A DNA stretch of 64,000 bases from positions 3,680,001-3,744,000 of the forward strand of contig OZ220089.1 of NCBI GenBank assembly GCA_964291625.2. The letters run 5' to 3'. A program made the position numbers and the translations under genes. This DNA is from Candidatus Latescibacterota bacterium (GTDB taxonomy: Bacteria > Latescibacterota > UBA2968 > UBA8231). Below are positions 14,757-33,504 of the stretch, in pieces. The notes under the pieces are model-generated. The model searched no databases and was not told the DNA's origin. It saw only the letters and a list, made by a program, of their open reading frames with translations. The first letter of the stretch is position 1. Every line of letters starts with the position of its first letter.

Positions 14757-14951
14757 TCAGGGACTTCCCTCTTCGACTTCTTCCTGCTTCTCGGCCAGTC
14801 CCACGGCGAGCAGGGCAAGGACGGGGAATACGAGTCCCAGAACGAACCACTCGTCGCCGCTCCGGTTCTTCGTCCTGGCTACGAAGCGGGAGAAGAAGGC
14901 CGAGGCGAGCCAGAAGGCGATGGCTGGTGCCAGTCCCAGGTTGAGATCCAT
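14757..14951 (-). CDS. Small membrane protein (64 aa, two hydrophobic segments)
   Basis: GAGGAG RBS before the ATG at 14951. MDLNLGLAPAIAFWLASAFFSRFVARTKNRSGDEWFVLGLVFPVLALLAVGL..., with the common A..K.RS...WF.LG pattern. Confidence 0.7.
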   Translation of the reverse strand: MDLNLGLAPAIAFWLASAFFSRFVARTKNRSGDEWFVLGLVFPVLALLAVGLAEKQEEVEEGSP

Positions 14952-15070
14952 TTGCTCCTCTCCGGGGTCGGAGGTTTGCGGTCCACGACGGGCGTCCGCC
15001 GGCGGACACTGGTGTGCGGCAACGGTCACCCTCGGCGCCCGCCCCAGGCAGGCGCTCGGGAGAGCCGGGT

Positions 15071-15087
15071 CTGGCATGGAGGTTGCA
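15071..15087 (+). promoter_or_regulatory. Sigma54 (RpoN) -24/-12 promoter
   Basis: CTGGCATGGAGGTTGCA = TGGCAY-N5-TTGCA with exact GG-N10-GC spacing, about 45 nt before a small ORF. Confidence 0.75.
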
Positions 15088-15130: not shown

Positions 15131-15217
15131 ATGCAGACCTTCCGCCGCGCCGCCGAGATCGCAGCTCCCGTCGCCATCGTCGTGTGCTTCCTCGGCCCGT
15201 TCTTTGTCGGCGCCTGA
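15131..15217 (+). CDS. Small hydrophobic peptide A (28 aa) MQTFRRAAEIAAPVAIVVCFLGPFFVGA
   Basis: AAGGAGG RBS, sigma54 promoter upstream, paralog at 28495, hairpin downstream. Confidence 0.7.
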   Translation: MQTFRRAAEIAAPVAIVVCFLGPFFVGA

Positions 15218-26941: not shown

Positions 26942-28066
26942 ATGAGGAGCGGAAAGGCCAGGGACGGCGGGGTCGTCCTCGCCGCCCTGGCCGCCGCTTC
27001 CATCTGTCATGCCCACCCTGCAGGGGAACTGGATCCCGAGCCCATGAACGTCGCGGTCGACGTCAAGCCGCTGCAGCCCCACAAGGGGACCACCCTCGCC
27101 TCCTGCGTCCATCCCCTGATGGCCGCCGCCGGCCGGCCCGAGTGGTCGATGGCGCGTCTCCAGGGCGTCCTGGGCCACGCCTTCCAGTTCGCCATGGAGG
27201 AAGGGGGCGGCATGGTCTTCCACGACAACCTCGACTGGAGCCTGGCCGTGGGCCTGTTGCCGGAGCTGGCCCGGTTCCGCGTGTACGAAGCCAACGACAA
27301 GAGCGTCGATGTCGATTGGCCGGCGCTGAAGGCCGAGGCCCGGGATGCCGCCGTGGCCAGCCTGGAGCGGGGGATCCCGGTGCTGGTGTGGCAGCCCATG
27401 AGCCTGGAGCAGAAGGAGAGCGATCACCCCGCGCATCACGCCTACTGCTGGGGGCTCATCGTCGGCTACGACCCCGAAGGCGAGACCTACACCATCCGCC
27501 ACCCCTTCGTCGAAGTCGACTACATGGTGCGCTACGACGCCCTCGGCCCCGGGGATCCCGGCGGGTGGTTCAACGTCACCGTCTACGAGGGTCCCGCCGA
27601 GGCGGCCGAGCGGGCGACCCACCTCATGGCCCTCCGAAACGCCATCGCCTTCGCCGAGGGGACGCGCTTCGAGCAGGCCGGCCGGCCCCAGACCCGGCCC
27701 CAGGGCCTGGCCGCCTACGAGACCTGGAGCGCCGCCTTCGATTCCGCGGACGTGGTCAAGCAGCCCACGCGCCATCACGCCAAGATCCTGACCTGGCGGC
27801 GGGAGCTCGCCGCCGGGTACATGCGCGAGCTGACGGACCTGCTGCCGGAAGGGGCGGAACCGCTGGCAGCGGCCGCCGCCGACTACGACCGGGAGCACAA
27901 GGCCCTGGTGGCCCTGTCCGCCCTCGTCGACTCCACCCACCAGCGGGGCGAGTACACCGGCGACGAGCTGGCCGAGGCCCGCCGGCTGATCGCCGAGGCC
28001 CTGGAGGCGGACCGGGCGGCCGTGGGCCGGATCGAGGCGGCGCTGGCGATCCTGGACGGGTCGTAG
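26942..28066 (+). CDS. Exported hypothetical protein, possibly BtrH_N/C39-like papain fold
   Basis: Signal peptide, LERGIPVLVW, WGLIVGYD, GLAAYETW. Starts 4 nt after the TonB receptor stop. Confidence 0.6.
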   Translation: MRSGKARDGGVVLAALAAASICHAHPAGELDPEPMNVAVDVKPLQPHKGTTLASCVHPLMAAAGRPEWSMARLQGVLGHAFQFAMEEGGGMVFHDNLDWSLAVGLLPELARFRVYEANDKSVDVDWPALKAEARDAAVASLERGIPVLVWQPMSLEQKESDHPAHHAYCWGLIVGYDPEGETYTIRHPFVEVDYMVRYDALGPGDPGGWFNVTVYEGPAEAAERATHLMALRNAIAFAEGTRFEQAGRPQTRPQGLAAYETWSAAFDSADVVKQPTRHHAKILTWRRELAAGYMRELTDLLPEGAEPLAAAAADYDREHKALVALSALVDSTHQRGEYTGDELAEARRLIAEALEADRAAVGRIEAALAILDGS

Positions 28067-28085
28067 CGGCGCCGGTCCCGCGCGC

Positions 28086-28205
28086 TCAGGCCAGGCTCTC
28101 GAGCACCTGTCCAAGCCGCCTGAAGGCCATGGCGGCGGCCCAGCCGTAGCTCAGGACCACGGCGGCGGGCAGCACCAGGTGCTGAAACAGTTCCGTCCGT
28201 CCCAT
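28086..28205 (-). CDS. Small hydrophobic peptide C (39 aa) MGRTELFQHLVLPAAVVLSYGWAAAMAFRRLGQVLESLA
   Basis: GAGGAGG RBS and a consensus sigma54 promoter about 35 nt upstream. Confidence 0.65.
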   Translation of the reverse strand: MGRTELFQHLVLPAAVVLSYGWAAAMAFRRLGQVLESLA

Positions 28206-28240
28206 CGGTTCCCTCCTCTTCTGCGAGATGTCCGGCTCCG

Positions 28241-28257
28241 TGCAAGGCCCGTGCCAG
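28241..28257 (-). promoter_or_regulatory. Sigma54 -24/-12 promoter (minus strand)
   Basis: Reverse complement CTGGCACGGGCCTTGCA, a perfect TGGCACG-N4-TTGCA. Confidence 0.8.
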
Positions 28258-28313
28258 TCTCTGGGGGGCACCGATCTCCAGCGGCGCCGGACGCGGTCCT
28301 CCAGGACCCCGGA

Positions 28314-28373
28314 GACTGCAGGCCTGCAGTCGTCCCTTGGGCCAGGCACGAGGTGTTCGACAGCGAACACCTC
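28314..28373. promoter_or_regulatory. Two palindromes, candidate enhancer (bEBP) binding sites
   Basis: GACTGCAGGCCTGCAGTC (28314-28331) and GAGGTGTTCG-ACAG-CGAACACCTC (28350-28373, contains TGT-N10-ACA). Confidence 0.55.
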
Positions 28374-28432
28374 TGTCTCGAAACAGGTCACCAGCGAGGT
28401 CCATCTCGAGCCTGCCACCCAGGGGAACCGGC

Positions 28433-28449
28433 CTGGCACGGTGGTTGCA
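28433..28449 (+). promoter_or_regulatory. Sigma54 -24/-12 promoter (plus strand)
   Basis: CTGGCACGGTGGTTGCA, a perfect TGGCACG-N4-TTGCA. Confidence 0.8.
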
Positions 28450-28494
28450 AGAGCGAGGGCGTCAACTCACGACCCTTCGCCCGAGGAGGACGAC

Positions 28495-28605
28495 ATGAGG
28501 ACCCTTCGCATCGCCAGAGAGATCGCCGTTCCCGTGGCCATCGGTCTGTGCTTCGCCGGACTGTCGACCTTCGCCCACTACGCCACCGTCTCCCTCACCG
28601 TCTGA
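28495..28605 (+). CDS. Small hydrophobic peptide B (36 aa) MRTLRIAREIAVPVAIGLCFAGLSTFAHYATVSLTV
   Basis: GAGGAGG RBS, sigma54 promoter, 14/22 identical to peptide A over the N-terminus, GC hairpin just after the stop. Confidence 0.7.
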   Translation: MRTLRIAREIAVPVAIGLCFAGLSTFAHYATVSLTV

Positions 28606-28806
28606 GAGCGCGGCGGCTGACCGGACCGCCGCCTCTCCGGCCCGGTCGCACACCGGCCTTGGTCAAGGTCCACCTTTGCGGGTTCCTTGGGGTGGATCTC
28701 TCGACCAGCGCCATGCGACAGGGCCTCGCCTGGCCGGGCCGCTCTCCCGTCCGTGTGCCATCGGGCGGGGGGCGGCCCACTCCATTCGGCCCGGGAGCAT
28801 CAGTCC

Positions 28807-31800
28807 TTGTCCCTCTGCGACGGCGCGCCCGGACGGGCCATCCTCTTCCTCACATGGGCCCTGGCCGTTTCCCCCCAGACGGCCGGCGCCGTTCCACCGT
28901 ACGTCTGCGCCGAGGCCCTGATCGCCGCCTCGAGCCCGGCCGGGGCGGTCCCTCCTCCCCGGGCCAAGCCCGCCGCTCCCCTCTCGCGGGTCACCGCCCT
29001 CGTGGTCTTCGCTGGCTTCCAGGGCCAGCAACTCGGCGTGCCCTCCTGGGCCGAGTCCCTCTTCGACCTGGACCGTCCCGGCAGCGTCAGCCACTTCTAC
29101 CGGGAGATGTCCTTCGGGAGCCTCACCCTCCGCGGAGTCGTGGCGCCAAGGCGCTACCTCGCCTCGGGCGACGCCATCGACTACGCGGCGGCCCGTGCCA
29201 CGGAACGCGGCCGCTACGCGGAGTTCGTGCGGGAGATCCTGCGCCAGGTGGACGAAGACCTGGACCTCGCCCGGTTCGACAGCGACGGCCCCGACGGGCG
29301 GCCGGACTCCGGCGACGACGATGGAGAGGTGGATCTCCTCGTTCTCCTCACACCCGCCCTGCCGCGCAACTTCATCCTCGGGGGCGCCACCGGGATCGGC
29401 GATCTGGGGCTCCGCGAGGCCGCGGCCACCGCCGACCCGGACTTCGAGGGCAACCCGATCACCTATCGCCTCGGTCTGGTCGCCCAGGGCCGCTCCTTCC
29501 CGGAGGCGGCGGGCACCGTCGCCCACGAGCTGGGGCACACCCTCTTCGGCCTGATAGACCTCTACAACGTGGCCTATCTCAGCCGGGAGGAGCCGCGGGA
29601 CCCGGCCGACGATTCGGCGGGCATCGGCAACTGGGGTCTCATGGGCTGGGGGGCCCTCGGCTGGGGGGGCGGCGACGGACCCGTCGGCTTCTCCGCGTGG
29701 AGCCGTCTCCGCCTCGGATGGTCCCGGGTCACCGAGGTCGACCAACCGTCGCAGGGGATCGTCCTGCGGGACGTGGCGAGAACGGGAGAGCTGGTCCGCA
29801 TCCCTGCCGGCGGGGAGGAGTACTTCCTCCTCGAGTACCGGACCCGCTCCTCCTGGTACGACCGGGGGGTCCCGGCCGAGGGTTTGCTCATCTGGCACGT
29901 CATGAGCAACCGCACCGGCGAGGTCACCAACGCCCACTGGCTGGTCGACCTGGAGTGCGCCGACGGCCGCTGGCAGGAAGGCGGGTTCCCCGTGGGCCGC
30001 ACGCCGGACCCGCTCCACGGCGGCGACAACCTCGACTTCTGGGCGGGGGATGACTCCTACGCCCGGGACCATGGGGGCAACCTCGGCGACGCCACCGACG
30101 TCTTCGGACCCGCCGGGCGCACGGAGTTCACCGCCCACACGAACCCGAGCTCCGCGGACCGGGAGGGCCGGAGCACGTTCCGCGTCACCGGCATCGAGGT
30201 GACGGAGAGAGGGCTCGAGGCGCGGGTCGAGATCGATGGGCCGCGGATCGAGTTCGAGGCCCTGAGGGTGCAGGATGAGACCGGGGACGGCGTTCTGGTG
30301 GCCGGCGAGGAAGGGGCGCTGCGCCTCGACCTCGTGAACCGGGGAGGGCTTCCGGCCCTTGGCGCGACCCTGACGCTGGAGCCCCTGGACGATCTGCTGA
30401 CGGTGACCCCGAACCGCCTGCCCCTGCCCGACATGCCGCCCGACGAGCGCATTCTCGGAGGCGCCGTCGCCGAGCCGCCGCGGCTGCGGGCCTCCACCGA
30501 CTTCCCCTCCTCCCGGGTGGCGCGGCTGCGTCTGACCGCCGAGGCCGACGGCGACACCATCGGCCGGCACCGGCTCGAGGTCCCCCTGATCAGCGCGCGG
30601 CAGGAAGGCCTGCAGTGGCGCCTGCGCGACCCGGACGGAACCGGCCGCATCGACCCCGGGGGGTTCTTCCACCTCGATCTGGAACTGGCCTCGGCCGCCC
30701 CCGCGCTGCTCTCCGGCCTGAGGTGGTACCTGTCCAGCGGCAGCGCCGGCATCCGCAGGGTGTCCGCCGGCACCGTCGAGTTCCGCGCCGACGGCGGCCA
30801 GGGCGCCCGCAGCTCCCGCACCCCGGAGTTCCTCGCCCTGACCGAAGCCGCCGGACGGGAGGCCGACTTCGTCCTGGAGGTGCGCACCCCCTTCCAGGTG
30901 TGGACGGACACCGCGACCTTCCGGGTCACCCGGTCCCGCGACCTGACCCCGCCCCGGGTGACCGGCACACGCGTCTCCCCCGTGGAGGGCGGGTTCAGGG
31001 TGCAGGTGCACCGCCGCTGGATCCTCGACGGAAGCCGCATCTCCCGGGCGGCGGCCAGGATCCACTCCCTGCCCGATTCCAGCCTGGCCGCCGAGGTGCC
31101 CCTGGCCGAGCGGGACGGCGTGTACGAGGCCGAGTGGGAGGGCCCCGCCGCTTCGTACTCCGTCGCCGTGGCCGTCGAGGACGAGGAGGGCAACCTCGGG
31201 TTGAGCGCGCCCTTGTCCATCCGGATTGCCGAACCTGCCGAGGCCCCGCCCGGGCATGTGCCGCCCGGGCCGGCGCCGCCCGGGCCGGTGTCGGCCGGGG
31301 ACTGGTGGGCGGCCGGGCCGGATACGGTCGCCCCCGCCGCCATGCGGCGGACCCACGCGGGGGCCACGATCTGGTACGGCCTGACGGACTCGCAGGTCTG
31401 GCGCTCCGACGACCGCGGGACGTCCTGGCAGCCCACGGCCCTCATGCTCTCAGGGCACGCCGGCCCCGGCGTCATCTACGGCGATCCCGACGACCCGCTG
31501 ATCGCCTACGTCATCGAGAACGGGCACCCCGGCGGCTCCCGTTTCGCCGGCGCCCTGGTCACCCGTGACGGCGGAGTCACCTGGACCCCCATCGCGGTGC
31601 CCGAGGGCGTGTACGTGGCGCTCGTCGATCCCCATCTCCCCGGCAGGCTCTACGGCCTGGCGCCGGAGGCGGTCTTCCTGAGCGAGGACGGCGGACGGAA
31701 CTGGACGGACTTCCTCGTTCCGGAAGCCGTGTGGGCCTCTTCCCATCCGGCGGACCCGGGCCGGACCTACGCCTGGGTGTCCTTGGCCGCGGCCGACTCG

Positions 31801-33504
31801 AGTCTCTGGCGGGTCGGCCACGGAGGCACCTACCCCGTCGGCGGCTTCCTGGCCAACCCCGGTGCCTTCGCCGCGGACCCGTGGACTCCGGGGGGCTTCT
31901 ACGCCGTCGAGGGGAGCACGCTCTACCACAGCCCGGACGAGGGCGGGCCGTGGGAGCCCCGGGGAGCTGTCGGCGGCCACGTCGAGGGGCTTGCCGTCTC
32001 CGCCTCTGCGCCCGGCCTGATCTACGCCCGCGGCGTCCGCCGCGTGCACCGCAGCGAGGACGGCGGCGCCTCCTGGGACCCGACGCCTCCGGAATACCTC
32101 GGGATCGAAAGCGTGAGCGCCGATGCCACCCACCCATCCGGCCTCCTCGTCCAGACCCAGGGGGAGTTGTTCGTCTCGAGAGATCAGGGCCGGACCGCGG
32201 CACCGGTCCGGGTCGAGGCGCCTGTGCCGGCCGGGACGTTGTGGTTCGACGATGCGGGGCGCCTCGGCATGTCCACCGCGTGGTCGGAGGAGCATGGCCA
32301 CCGCTACATCGGGATCTACAGGAACGACGGGCCGACCTGGAGATGGACCGGTCTCCCGTCAAGGGCCTGGCCGCTCTACGAGGTGATCGTGGAGGATCCC
32401 GCGGTGGAGGGTCTGCTCCTGGCACAGGGCGTGCAGGCCCGCGGGTTCCTCAGGCGAGGCCCGCTCTGGGGATATCCCTTCGTGCAGACTTTCGCACGGA
32501 GCACCAACGGTGGCGCCAGCTGGGAAGCCCTGGACGTCGGCAGGTACTACCTGCACCCCCGGGTCCCTCCGCATGCCACATACATCAAGCACACGCGCAG
32601 GGAAGGGCAGTACTTCCTGGCGGGCGCCGGCGTGTGGCGAAGCGAGGATTACGGCGAGAGCTGGGAGAGGATCGGTCCCTTCAGGAATCTCTCACTCAGC
32701 GAACTCCCAACAACCACCCTGGCGGGCGGAGCCCTGCTGAGCCCGCGGGACTCGCTCATGGTCGTCTTCGGCGACTCCGTCTGGGTGGGACACACCTCCG
32801 GAACGGGCTGGAGGGTGGCCGGCCGTCTCGAGCCCGGAGCCTCGGGGCTGGACCTGGCCCGGCATCCGGACGAGCCCGGCGTCCTCTGCGCGGCGGCGAC
32901 CACGGGATGCTTCGTCTCCGGAGACGGGGGGCGGACCTGGCGCCGGGCCCTGGAGCCCCGGTGGGGATCGTGGAGGAGGGCGCGCCTGCGCGGCCATCCG
33001 GTCGAGGCCGACGCGCTGTACCTGGCCGCCGACCGCGAGCTGTATCACAGCCCGGACCGCGGAGAGACCTGGCGGCCCCTCGACGGGGGCTATCCGGGGG
33101 TCCACTGGATCAACGACGTCGCCGTCGATCCCCTCGATCCGTCGATCCTCTACGTGGCCACGAGCGGCGGGCTGTACTCCATCGAACATCCCCCCACGTC
33201 GATCTCCGGGGACCCTCGGGTGCCGCGGACTGCCGAGCTGGGGCCGAGCTACCCCAACCCCTTCAACGCCGGCACTGTCATCCCCTTCCGCCTGGGGGCC
33301 GCCGGCCGGGTGAGGATCGACGTCTTCAACCTCCTCGGACAGCGGGTCCGCCGCCTGCTCGACGAGCGGCGCGCCCCCGGCCTGCACAAGGTGCGCTGGT
33401 CCGGGACCGACGACCGGGGGGCCCCGGTCTCCAGCGGTGTCTACTTCTACCGCCTCAGCATGGGCGATGTGGTCGAGACCCGGCGCTGCATGCTGATCAG
33501 GTGA
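28807..33504 (+). CDS. Large secreted M6 (immune inhibitor A-like) metalloprotease with BNR/Asp-box propellers and C-terminal FlgD-Ig sorting domain
   Basis: AHELGH..GLIDLY zinc motif, W.LMG.G, EYFLLEYR, GLLIWHV, many S.D.G..W repeats, SYPNPFNAGT...SGVYFYRL. Start uncertain (TTG 28807 with GGGAG RBS; frame open from 28687). Confidence 0.85.
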   Translation: MSLCDGAPGRAILFLTWALAVSPQTAGAVPPYVCAEALIAASSPAGAVPPPRAKPAAPLSRVTALVVFAGFQGQQLGVPSWAESLFDLDRPGSVSHFYREMSFGSLTLRGVVAPRRYLASGDAIDYAAARATERGRYAEFVREILRQVDEDLDLARFDSDGPDGRPDSGDDDGEVDLLVLLTPALPRNFILGGATGIGDLGLREAAATADPDFEGNPITYRLGLVAQGRSFPEAAGTVAHELGHTLFGLIDLYNVAYLSREEPRDPADDSAGIGNWGLMGWGALGWGGGDGPVGFSAWSRLRLGWSRVTEVDQPSQGIVLRDVARTGELVRIPAGGEEYFLLEYRTRSSWYDRGVPAEGLLIWHVMSNRTGEVTNAHWLVDLECADGRWQEGGFPVGRTPDPLHGGDNLDFWAGDDSYARDHGGNLGDATDVFGPAGRTEFTAHTNPSSADREGRSTFRVTGIEVTERGLEARVEIDGPRIEFEALRVQDETGDGVLVAGEEGALRLDLVNRGGLPALGATLTLEPLDDLLTVTPNRLPLPDMPPDERILGGAVAEPPRLRASTDFPSSRVARLRLTAEADGDTIGRHRLEVPLISARQEGLQWRLRDPDGTGRIDPGGFFHLDLELASAAPALLSGLRWYLSSGSAGIRRVSAGTVEFRADGGQGARSSRTPEFLALTEAAGREADFVLEVRTPFQVWTDTATFRVTRSRDLTPPRVTGTRVSPVEGGFRVQVHRRWILDGSRISRAAARIHSLPDSSLAAEVPLAERDGVYEAEWEGPAASYSVAVAVEDEEGNLGLSAPLSIRIAEPAEAPPGHVPPGPAPPGPVSAGDWWAAGPDTVAPAAMRRTHAGATIWYGLTDSQVWRSDDRGTSWQPTALMLSGHAGPGVIYGDPDDPLIAYVIENGHPGGSRFAGALVTRDGGVTWTPIAVPEGVYVALVDPHLPGRLYGLAPEAVFLSEDGGRNWTDFLVPEAVWASSHPADPGRTYAWVSLAAADSSLWRVGHGGTYPVGGFLANPGAFAADPWTPGGFYAVEGSTLYHSPDEGGPWEPRGAVGGHVEGLAVSASAPGLIYARGVRRVHRSEDGGASWDPTPPEYLGIESVSADATHPSGLLVQTQGELFVSRDQGRTAAPVRVEAPVPAGTLWFDDAGRLGMSTAWSEEHGHRYIGIYRNDGPTWRWTGLPSRAWPLYEVIVEDPAVEGLLLAQGVQARGFLRRGPLWGYPFVQTFARSTNGGASWEALDVGRYYLHPRVPPHATYIKHTRREGQYFLAGAGVWRSEDYGESWERIGPFRNLSLSELPTTTLAGGALLSPRDSLMVVFGDSVWVGHTSGTGWRVAGRLEPGASGLDLARHPDEPGVLCAAATTGCFVSGDGGRTWRRALEPRWGSWRRARLRGHPVEADALYLAADRELYHSPDRGETWRPLDGGYPGVHWINDVAVDPLDPSILYVATSGGLYSIEHPPTSISGDPRVPRTAELGPSYPNPFNAGTVIPFRLGAAGRVRIDVFNLLGQRVRRLLDERRAPGLHKVRWSGTDDRGAPVSSGVYFYRLSMGDVVETRRCMLIR

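Follow-up and report, generated by a model that had tools for sequence, protein, structure and literature searches.

Outward-facing sigma-54-type cassettes for small predicted membrane peptides in an uncultured Latescibacterota bacterium

The window analyzed here, a 64-kb stretch (C1:3680001-3744000) of the genome of an uncultured Candidatus Latescibacterota bacterium (G000; 5.91 Mb, 69.5% G+C, two contigs), contains a region in which two small open reading frames (ORFs), pepM on the minus strand and pepP on the plus strand, face outward from a shared central segment. Each is preceded by a Shine-Dalgarno sequence and by a perfect match to the sigma-54 promoter pattern, and with the candidate activator sites that lie between them they would form two self-contained outward cassettes, each combining activator sites with a sigma-54 promoter, a strong ribosome-binding site and an ORF of 36-39 amino acids (aa). 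An earlier, sequence-only reading of this DNA had described the region as intergenic, which is confirmed by the flanking genes, a 374-aa gene that ends at 28066 on one side and a large M6-peptidase-like gene on the other. Relatives of the same genus (G002, G004, G006 and G007) were used for comparison. The features of the locus, in window coordinates, are the following.

28086-28205, minus strand: pepM, a 39-aa small ORF (MGRTELFQHLVLPAAVVLSYGWAAAMAFRRLGQVLESLA) with its ATG at 28205-28203 and its TGA stop at 28088-28086
28212-28218, minus strand: pepM Shine-Dalgarno sequence GAGGAGG, 6 nt before the ATG; a GGAG-type sequence is kept in all four pepM copies
28241-28256, minus strand: pepM sigma-54 promoter TGGCACGGGCCTTGCA, a perfect match, with a predicted transcription start near 28230
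28314-28331, no strand: 18-bp perfect palindrome GACTGCAGGCCTGCAGTC, its sequence unique in the genome and species-specific
28350-28373, no strand: UAS1, a 10+10 inverted repeat with the core TGTTCGACAGCGAACA at 28354-28369 (TGT-N10-ACA)
28374-28390, no strand: UAS2, a weaker second element TGTCTCGAAACAGGTCA that begins 20 nt, about two helical turns, after UAS1; a putative binding site
28434-28449, plus strand: pepP sigma-54 promoter TGGCACGGTGGTTGCA, a perfect match, with a predicted transcription start near 28460
28483-28489, plus strand: pepP Shine-Dalgarno sequence GAGGAGG, 5 nt before the ATG
28495-28605, plus strand: pepP (subfamily a), a 36-aa small ORF (MRTLRIAREIAVPVAIGLCFAGLSTFAHYATVSLTV)
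28606-28640, plus strand: GC-rich hairpin 3' of pepP, with its stem at 28610-28616 and 28626-28632 and no U-run

Promoters and products of the two cassettes

Sigma-54 promoters need a bacterial enhancer-binding protein (bEBP) bound about 80-150 bp upstream. We scanned for the pattern TGGCACG-N4-TTGCW, scoring sites out of 12 and using the reversed pattern as the control. The two outward-facing sites, with 177 nt between them, had already been pointed out in the sequence-only reading, two of whose coordinates for them were off by one. When one mismatch is allowed, the window contains three matches against a mean of 0.33 after shuffling, and none of 100 shuffles reaches three. Across the whole genome there are five perfect matches, two of them in this region, compared with none for the reversed control, and at one mismatch or fewer there are 40 compared with 20. 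The pepP site is kept at 12/12 in G002 and G006, and the orthologous pepM sites score 10-11/12 in G002, G006 and G007. The genome has the capacity to use such promoters: rpoN is present in a single copy (Sigma54_DBD, 209 bits), and among 23 matches to the sigma-54 interaction domain (PF00158) there are 19 strong bEBP genes (E at most 1e-38), none of them inside the window; that genes of both kinds exist was a point the earlier reading had asked to have confirmed. A consensus scan of both strands of 27900-28900, of a kind that may not suit this phylum, found no sigma-70-like promoter.

The peptides themselves are also much as first described, with GAGGAGG followed by an ORF for a hydrophobic single helix in each case. 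AlphaFold2 models both as one helix, spanning residues 2-35 in pepP (predicted local distance difference test, pLDDT, 89.7) and residues 3-38 in pepM (pLDDT 87.3). The best 19-residue hydropathy windows of the 36-aa and 39-aa peptides reach 1.75 and 1.82, and the peptides combine a hydrophobic core with a net charge of +1 to +4. They are most likely small inner-membrane proteins.

Across the locus, most of the conservation lies in the proposed elements, and identity drops to about 50% or less in the spacers. Between G000 and G006, the pepM ORF is identical at 97 of 120 positions, each promoter at 14 of 16, the pepP ORF at 101 of 111 and the hairpin at 34 of 36; the inverted repeat is kept at 18 of 24 positions in G006 and 22 of 24 in G002, and the pepP 5' untranslated region (UTR) in 34-35 of 36 columns in both relatives. 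The spacers diverge, with about half of the positions in 28257-28313 and 5 of 18 in 28332-28349 identical to G006.

Two side observations concern pepP. An exact 10-nt direct repeat, GACCCTTCGC, occurs at 28471-28480 in the 5' UTR and again at 28500-28509 within codons 2-5, and both copies are kept in G002 and G006 except for one base of the second. A mechanical 125-aa ORF (28228-28605, plus strand) crosses the promoter and the enhancer region in frame with pepP and might be picked up in error by gene callers; spurious N-terminal extensions of this sort are found on several database proteins of the peptide family (P0001, P0002, P0004 and P0012).

The micro-peptide family

With pepP as the tblastn query, the genome yielded two paralogues, at C1:3370599 and at window positions 15131-15217, each behind a sigma-54 site with one mismatch. 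A hidden Markov model built from a 13-row alignment was then run in six frames over 168 genomes of the phylum, and gave 17 family copies in five genomes, confined to one of 49 genera (four copies each in G000, G002 and G006, three in G007 and two in G004). These fall into four subfamilies: a (36 aa, with one copy of 32 aa), to which pepP belongs, b (38 aa), c (27-29 aa) and M, which comprises the four pepM orthologues of 39 aa each. Every one of the 17 copies has an ATG start, a GGAG-type Shine-Dalgarno sequence and a sigma-54 site scoring 10-12/12 at 50-109 nt upstream, for which the genome counts at one mismatch or fewer give an estimated chance rate of about 0.003 per 125 nt. Conservation of ORFs and promoters among relatives, the absence of which would have refuted the first description on its own terms, is found for both genes.

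In the pattern shared by the subfamilies, Met is followed by a basic stretch and an acidic residue, and A-(V/L)-P then leads into a hydrophobic run; Pro13 is invariant. A profile comparison of M with a+b returned a probability of 93.5% (E = 2.3e-7), to be taken with caution because hydrophobic peptides align easily; pepM and pepP are probably distant paralogues. Searches of Pfam and NCBIfam with the peptides, and of Rfam with the region, gave no match, and the best ESM Atlas scores (0.86 and 0.77) were under the level of a usable lead. Among 1.84 billion representative proteins there were 15 matches at E at most 0.001; two of these (P0010, 459 aa, and P0011, 1270 aa) each cover only 15-16 profile positions and were left aside, and the 13 examined are short members of the same subfamilies. 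In a species-representative collection, the a+b alignment found six loci in four metagenome-assembled genome records labeled Gemmatimonadaceae or Candidatus Latescibacterota.

The third sigma-54 match in the window belongs to the local member of subfamily c, copies of which also occur in G002, G004, G006 and G007.

14993-15008, no strand: upstream activator-type site CGTCCGCCGGCGGACA, with one mismatch
15072-15087, plus strand: sigma-54 site TGGCATGGAGGTTGCA, with one mismatch
15131-15217, plus strand: subfamily c peptide of 28 aa (MQTFRRAAEIAAPVAIVVCFLGPFFVGA)

Divergent from this peptide gene is a 64-aa ORF (14760-14951, minus strand) with two hydrophobic segments and the ribosome-binding site GGAGAGGAG, for which a Pfam search gave no match and a sigma-54 site was not seen.

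The cassettes are several short paralogous units, each of which has a sigma-54 promoter and activator sites to itself and a hairpin behind the ORF. They could instead be genes for small regulatory RNAs under sigma-54, like the multi-copy Qrr or GlmY, with ORFs that are incidental or transcripts that have a dual function. The Qrr RNAs of Vibrio are multi-copy, each with a sigma-54 promoter and LuxO sites, which is the same general layout. The pepP 5' UTR, ORF and hairpin are also 91-97% identical between G000 and G006, compared with 81% for the pepM ORF, and synonymous divergence (dS) is low in subfamilies a and b (0.04-0.22). However, for this genome pair dS is 0.15-0.21 in the genes that flank the locus, and the low value for pepP (2 synonymous differences) is therefore not clearly unusual. 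Unlike in the Qrr case, moreover, the Shine-Dalgarno sequence, ATG and coding-type periodicity are kept here and no conserved RNA structure was found. The transcripts are not over-stable when folded (minimum free energy z = +1.20 and +0.56 relative to shuffles), 10 copies share only a weak consensus fold (-10.6 kcal/mol), in which no more than 2 of 20 pairs covary, and the region has no Rfam counterpart.

Several features point to translation instead. None of the 17 copies has lost the Shine-Dalgarno sequence or the ATG, and within each subfamily the position of the stop is preserved. Length changes compared at the DNA level keep the frame, with a 12-nt deletion in the subfamily a copy of G002 (32 aa) and a subfamily c copy one codon shorter in G006 (27 aa). 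G+C content is 0.81-0.89 at third codon positions (GC3) against 0.41-0.53 at second positions (GC2) in the 13 copies examined (0.87 and 0.46 in pepM, 0.86 and 0.53 in pepP), matching real genes of this genome, and both peptides are modeled by AlphaFold2 as long single helices. pepM and pepP also resemble each other as proteins. On this evidence we regard the small-RNA explanation as improbable and the peptides as presumably translated.

The family also shows that the divergent pair described in the sequence-only reading is not a fixed unit. The pepM cassette (sites, promoter and ORF) occupies three genomic contexts across four genomes: it stands beside pepP in G000 and G006, is inserted inside a second activator/ABC cluster in G002 (L098 3472-4085), and lies in G007 between genes homologous to those at C1:3.209 Mb of G000 (L086). 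In G002 and G007 the peptide genes are thus at separate loci, each with its own upstream sites, and the pepM cassette behaves as a relocating unit.

This mobility also bears on what pepP might do for its neighbor. The gene downstream of pepP (28687-33504, plus strand) would encode a protein of about 1600 aa with Peptidase_M6, BNR/Sortilin-Vps10 and C-terminal FlgD_ig domains. The hairpin between the two is possibly a terminator or an attenuator, and a consensus terminator scan of 27900-28900 found no U-run terminator; if the hairpin leaks, the M6-peptidase-like gene could be co-transcribed with pepP. It could then be argued that the pepP promoter mainly serves this large gene (from about 28687) and that pepP is a leader peptide or upstream ORF controlling read-through of the hairpin. 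The large gene has the same orientation and starts about 80 nt after pepP in a synteny kept in G006 and G002, the hairpin has no U-run, and a contig from an RNA library crosses it and reaches 28721. Nevertheless, other family members stand alone, the subfamily b copies end in a strong hairpin (with a T-run in G000), and the pepM cassette moves between contexts as a unit; pepM, moreover, is convergent with its neighbor, with only 19 nt between the two stops, and can therefore serve no downstream gene. Such a leader function is accordingly very unlikely.

Upstream sites, candidate regulon and candidate activator

Between the two promoters, the sequence-only reading had described an enhancer-like region with an 18-bp palindrome and a 10-bp inverted repeat containing TGT-N10-ACA. 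Both are present exactly as described, and only the second proves to be conserved. Perfect 9+9 palindromes number 133 in the genome, about 1.4 per 64 kb, and the one at 28314-28331 is identical to G006 at 11 of 18 positions, where 21 nt are inserted in G006; in G002 this segment and the whole pepM side are replaced. With a shape that is not rare and a sequence kept in neither relative, the palindrome was rejected as a conserved regulatory site. UAS1, by contrast, is 80 nt from the pepP promoter and 113 nt from that of pepM, upstream in both cases, has a shape that is rarer (44 inverted repeats of the 10+10 kind in the genome) and is likely a binding site for a bEBP-type activator. In G006 its core reads TGTTCA-N4-TGAACA, a compensatory double change (TTCG..CGAA to TTCA..TGAA) that preserves the palindrome. 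The exact 20-nt form, GGTGTTC-N6-GAACACC, is unique in the genome, and a shared motif appeared on relaxing it to TGTYCG-N4-CGRACA, which has 6 exact matches in G000 against none for the reversed control, and 67 against 21 at one mismatch.

The same motif recurs in most of the family. The paralogues carry a repeat of this kind 78-81 nt upstream of the promoter, and the motif is found within 260 nt upstream in 13 of the 17 copies at one mismatch or fewer, where the background is 0.003 per 244 nt, and in 16 of the 17 at two or fewer. When UAS2 is aligned with G006 and G002, 13-14 of 18 columns are identical, and a second site 20 nt after the first (at most one mismatch) occurs in five other copies, namely the subfamily c copies of G000, G004 and G006 and the subfamily b copies of G006 and G007. 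The pepM orthologue of G007 likewise has two sites 20 nt apart, further upstream (-173/-153).

Of 61 family genomes, 5 contain a composite of a site, 55-95 nt and TGGCAC-N5-TTGC, at 10 places in total, and the reversed controls all give zero. This leaves little to be said for a chance arrangement without function, which has in its favor only the general ease with which open frames and palindromes arise in GC-rich DNA. Two of the genome's five perfect sites are separated by 177 nt, the arrangement is kept in 17 copies, and all reversed-pattern controls, for perfect sigma-54 sites and for the composite, are zero; chance is effectively refuted.

The motif also leads beyond the peptides. In G000, motif and sigma-54 site together precede two MacB_PCD/FtsX permease clusters (C1:2196294 and C1:2223752), a receiver-domain (REC) gene with a PD40 protein, and a gene for a 70-aa helix-turn-helix (HTH) protein (C1:1137095, minus strand) that stands behind tandem sites and a perfect sigma-54 promoter; tandem sites are likewise found before permease genes. 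Two flavors of the site can be distinguished: pepP-type (subfamily a) and pepM genes are preceded by TGTTCG..CGAACA, and the genes of subfamilies b and c, like the HTH gene and the permeases, by TGTCCG..CGGACA. The stand-alone HTH protein is Fis-like, is 64-71 aa long in G000, G002, G006 and G007, and in all four genomes its gene keeps the tandem sites and the perfect sigma-54 promoter.

A further copy of the motif lies 12 nt from the start codon of a gene for a 461-aa activator of REC-AAA-HTH_8 architecture (C1:2231604-2232986). In the opposite direction, divergent from this gene, the motif is followed by the sigma-54 site TGGCATGCATCTTGCG and then by an operon whose products are an HlyD-family adaptor, an ABC ATPase and a Beta-lactamase2-family protein. 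The next gene downstream of the activator encodes a histidine kinase of 452 aa with two N-terminal hydrophobic segments separated by a 7-residue loop (RNLDYPA). Intramembrane-sensing kinases are built in this way, with two membrane helices and a very short loop. The activator has orthologues at 93-99% identity in exactly five of ten genomes of the genus, the five that carry the peptides, and in G007 the kinase/activator/adaptor cluster has a subfamily c copy and the small HTH gene about 5 kb away. The stand-alone HTH protein aligns with the HTH at the C-terminus of this activator (35% over 40 aa, E = 6e-4) and may compete for the activator sites as negative feedback. The likely activator would be NtrC-type, and not of the NifA type whose site pattern the sequence-only reading had recognized.

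Two minor observations can be added on this cluster. The Beta-lactamase2-family gene (C1:2235315-2236694; L066 9315-10694, plus strand), which follows the HlyD and ABC-ATPase genes, fits a theme of cell-wall or antibiotic stress. The kinase orthologue of G007 (L071/L079) is matched by tblastn in two pieces with a one-base overlap near codon 235, which in a single-contig genome suggests a 1-nt frame break or an assembly error.

Interpretation and comparison with known systems

All of these observations lead us to favor, as likely if well short of certain, an explanation in which pepM and pepP encode small membrane peptides of a sigma-54 envelope-stress regulon, controlled by an NtrC-type activator on tandem sites and co-induced with transporters. 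The peptides would probably belong to a response to cell-envelope stress that a two-component sensor and ABC transporters run. In such a response, an envelope-active signal would be sensed in the membrane by the loop-less kinase, possibly via the ABC permeases as in Bce systems, and the kinase would phosphorylate the NtrC-type activator. The activator could then assemble on the tandem sites at 28354-28390 and, by looping, open sigma-54 closed complexes at 28434-28449 and, in the opposite direction, at 28256-28241. With about 80 bp between these sites and the plus promoter, and about 113 bp between them and the minus promoter, one activator assembly could serve both. Two short mRNAs would yield two single-pass membrane peptides alongside the transporters, where they could act as transporter or kinase accessories or as membrane effectors. 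Because the kinase with its 7-residue loop resembles Bce-type sensors, whose stimuli are membrane-active compounds, we infer that the peptides are induced together with the transporters under envelope or antimicrobial stress and exert their action in the membrane.

Several points weigh against this explanation. First, at the level of transcription and translation, the starts and the peptides themselves are predictions, and the function given to the peptides is drawn from context alone. RNA contigs are available from one metatranscriptome of a near-identical strain, and the pepP contig (28310-28721) starts 124 nt upstream of the pepP promoter; since it begins there, it shows neither a sigma-54 start nor that it derives from RNA rather than from carried-over DNA. 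The stretch with pepM and its promoter (28084-28309) is covered by none of the contigs, which is equally uninformative about expression. Open frames come cheap in DNA of 70% G+C. The ratio of nonsynonymous to synonymous divergence (dN/dS) is 0.34-0.50 for pepM in the three pairs of G000, G006 and G007 but 0.3-1.5, on 2-14 differences and uninformative, in subfamilies a and b, and the flanking genes of G000 and G006 have omega values of 0.37 and 0.36 (dS 0.21 and 0.15); dN/dS is underpowered because the compared genomes are too close. Variable columns by codon position number 11/11/14 (a+b) and 10/10/15 (M), with the third position only slightly higher. Second, the upstream sites are not uniform: the subfamily b copy of G000 has no recognizable upstream site at two mismatches or fewer, part of the upstream region of the subfamily b copy of G004 is masked, and the distance from the pepM promoter to its site varies from 71 nt in G002 to 113 in G000, 138 in G006 and 153/173 in G007. 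Finally, the co-occurrence of activator and peptides is weak evidence because the five genomes are close kin and phylogeny confounds it, and a second activator (C1:4164430-4165809), 44% identical overall and 52% identical in its HTH, lies in another cluster of membrane fusion protein (MFP), ATPase and FtsX genes with the same type of site. The assignment thus appears ambiguous between the two paralogues; it might be speculated that the two activators divide the peptide family between the two site flavors.

The peptides could also be effectors in their own right. TisB is a stress-induced, membrane-depolarizing toxin that slows growth, and pepM and pepP might be toxins of this kind, or else antimicrobial or signal peptides exported by the co-regulated MacAB-like ABC system. 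They are short, hydrophobic and mildly cationic helices in several paralogues, each with a strong promoter and Shine-Dalgarno sequence; they appear to be co-regulated with MFP/ABC/FtsX transporters, and their cassettes sit in different contexts in different genomes. However, about 25 hydrophobic residues after a basic N-terminus are more in keeping with a membrane anchor than with a cargo. Both a double-glycine leader and a lipoprotein signal peptide were rejected on reading the sequences, in which no such leader, no lipobox and no conserved Cys was seen. Among the features of type I toxin-antitoxin systems, the hydrophobic peptide is present and the pepM and pepP units do not overlap; a promoter of the sigma-70 type for an antisense antitoxin RNA did not appear on either strand of 27900-28900 in the consensus scan, which may be ill suited to the phylum. 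We consider an effector function unlikely, and return to the regulon of small membrane peptides in comparing it with systems already described.

One of the closest known counterparts of the divergent layout is the zraP/zraSR system, whose ZraP is a periplasmic chaperone of about 140 aa. The sequence-only reading had recognized no described system with this layout, but divergent sigma-54 promoters under one activator are described for zraP/zraSR (PMC4987338) and for operons of Desulfovibrio (PMC4641369). The zraP/zraSR system of Escherichia coli and Salmonella shares with the present one two outward sigma-54 promoters, a single two-component activator (the NtrC-type ZraR), a link to envelope stress and, as one product, a small accessory protein of the system. 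The differences are that both products here are predicted membrane peptides of 36-39 aa, rather than a periplasmic chaperone and a regulator operon, and that here the activator genes are elsewhere in the genome, the site motif is different and the pairing is not kept among relatives. The conserved regulatory arrangement is real, and what it presents is a new small-protein family in a known regulatory frame.

TGT-N10-ACA is the NifA upstream activator sequence, and the core of the repeat fits it and lies 80-115 bp upstream of a -24/-12 promoter, as in NifA-dependent systems. The site here is nevertheless longer and more specific (TGTYCG-N4-CGRACA) and is tandem, the candidate activators combine REC-AAA-HTH_8 with a partner kinase whereas NifA is GAF-AAA-HTH, and the targets are peptides and transporters and not nif genes, for which no search was made.

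The closest parallel to the sensory part is found in the Bce modules of Firmicutes, in which an intramembrane-sensing kinase and BceAB, an FtsX/MacB-type ABC transporter, sense antimicrobial peptides and act through an OmpR-type regulator. The kinase described above, with two membrane helices and a 7-residue loop, is similarly encoded beside MFP and ABC-ATPase genes, and its locus shares the upstream-site motif with FtsX/MacB permease clusters. Unlike in Bce modules, the regulator here would be a sigma-54 activator whose targets carry sigma-54 sites, in place of an OmpR-type protein acting at sigma-70 promoters; the candidate regulon includes four micro-peptide genes and a stand-alone HTH protein, and the organism, which is uncultured, belongs to a different phylum. 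One paper (PMC12316311) mentions FtsX-like permeases under sigma-54.

A bolder version of the favored explanation, which we offer as a tentative and rather doubtful one, is that an antimicrobial-sensing module of Bce type has been rewired onto sigma-54. In this version the loop-less kinase and the NtrC-type activator would switch on MacB/FtsX transporters, four paralogous micro-peptides and the stand-alone HTH protein, a decoy-like version of the activator's DNA-binding domain. The peptides would be membrane feedback or coupling elements that bind the kinase or the permeases, as MgrB does with PhoQ and AcrZ with AcrB, and the site-promoter-ORF cassettes of about 250-600 bp would be portable units that relocate with their own regulation.

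To our knowledge, small membrane proteins are routinely missed by annotation, and their regulation is known almost entirely from enterobacteria and from sigma-70-type promoters. The enterobacterial proteins MgrB, AcrZ, MgtS, YohP and PspG resemble the present peptides in length (under 50 aa, with PspG at about 80), and share with what is predicted for them a single membrane helix and a place in a dedicated stress regulon; some proteins of this group feed back on a sensor kinase or bind a transporter. Unlike them, the family described here has no sequence similarity to known families (no Pfam or NCBIfam match) and consists, in G000, of four paralogues each with a sigma-54 promoter. PspG is described as a PspF/sigma-54 target (PMC4987338). 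A narrow literature search, which excluded supplementary regulon tables, turned up no account of a micro-peptide family (under 40 aa) in which every member has a sigma-54 promoter to itself, and a 2025 review of small membrane proteins (PMC12648545) does not contain the terms sigma54, sigma-54, RpoN or enhancer.

In this case a promoter signature and a conserved enhancer flag a micro-protein family of 27-39 aa in an uncultured lineage, and the same signals tie it to a defined two-component and ABC-transporter regulon; scans for sigma-54 sites can serve as a finder of unannotated small genes. The distribution is narrow, at five related species, and the system is known here from its sequence alone. 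It is concrete enough (a promoter, sites, two candidate activators and four peptides) to be rebuilt in a laboratory host, and could address the role of stress-induced micro-peptides beside MacB-type transporters and loop-less sensor kinases.

Outside the candidate regulon, near-consensus sigma-54 sites lie 5' of groES, hsp20, pspA and ssb, all confirmed by Pfam (C1:4728345, 3837961, 47683 and 4632884, all on the minus strand). The TGTYCG-N4-CGRACA motif was not found at the pspA, groES and hsp20 promoters (for pspA, at two mismatches or fewer in 300 nt upstream). Membership of the peptides in a Psp (phage-shock) regulon was rejected, in that pspA (PspA_IM30) has a sigma-54-like site but not the activator motif. 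These sites suggest heat-shock and envelope-stress genes under other activators, and with such sites before groES, hsp20, pspA and ssb, it seems likely that sigma-54 drives stress genes broadly in this organism.

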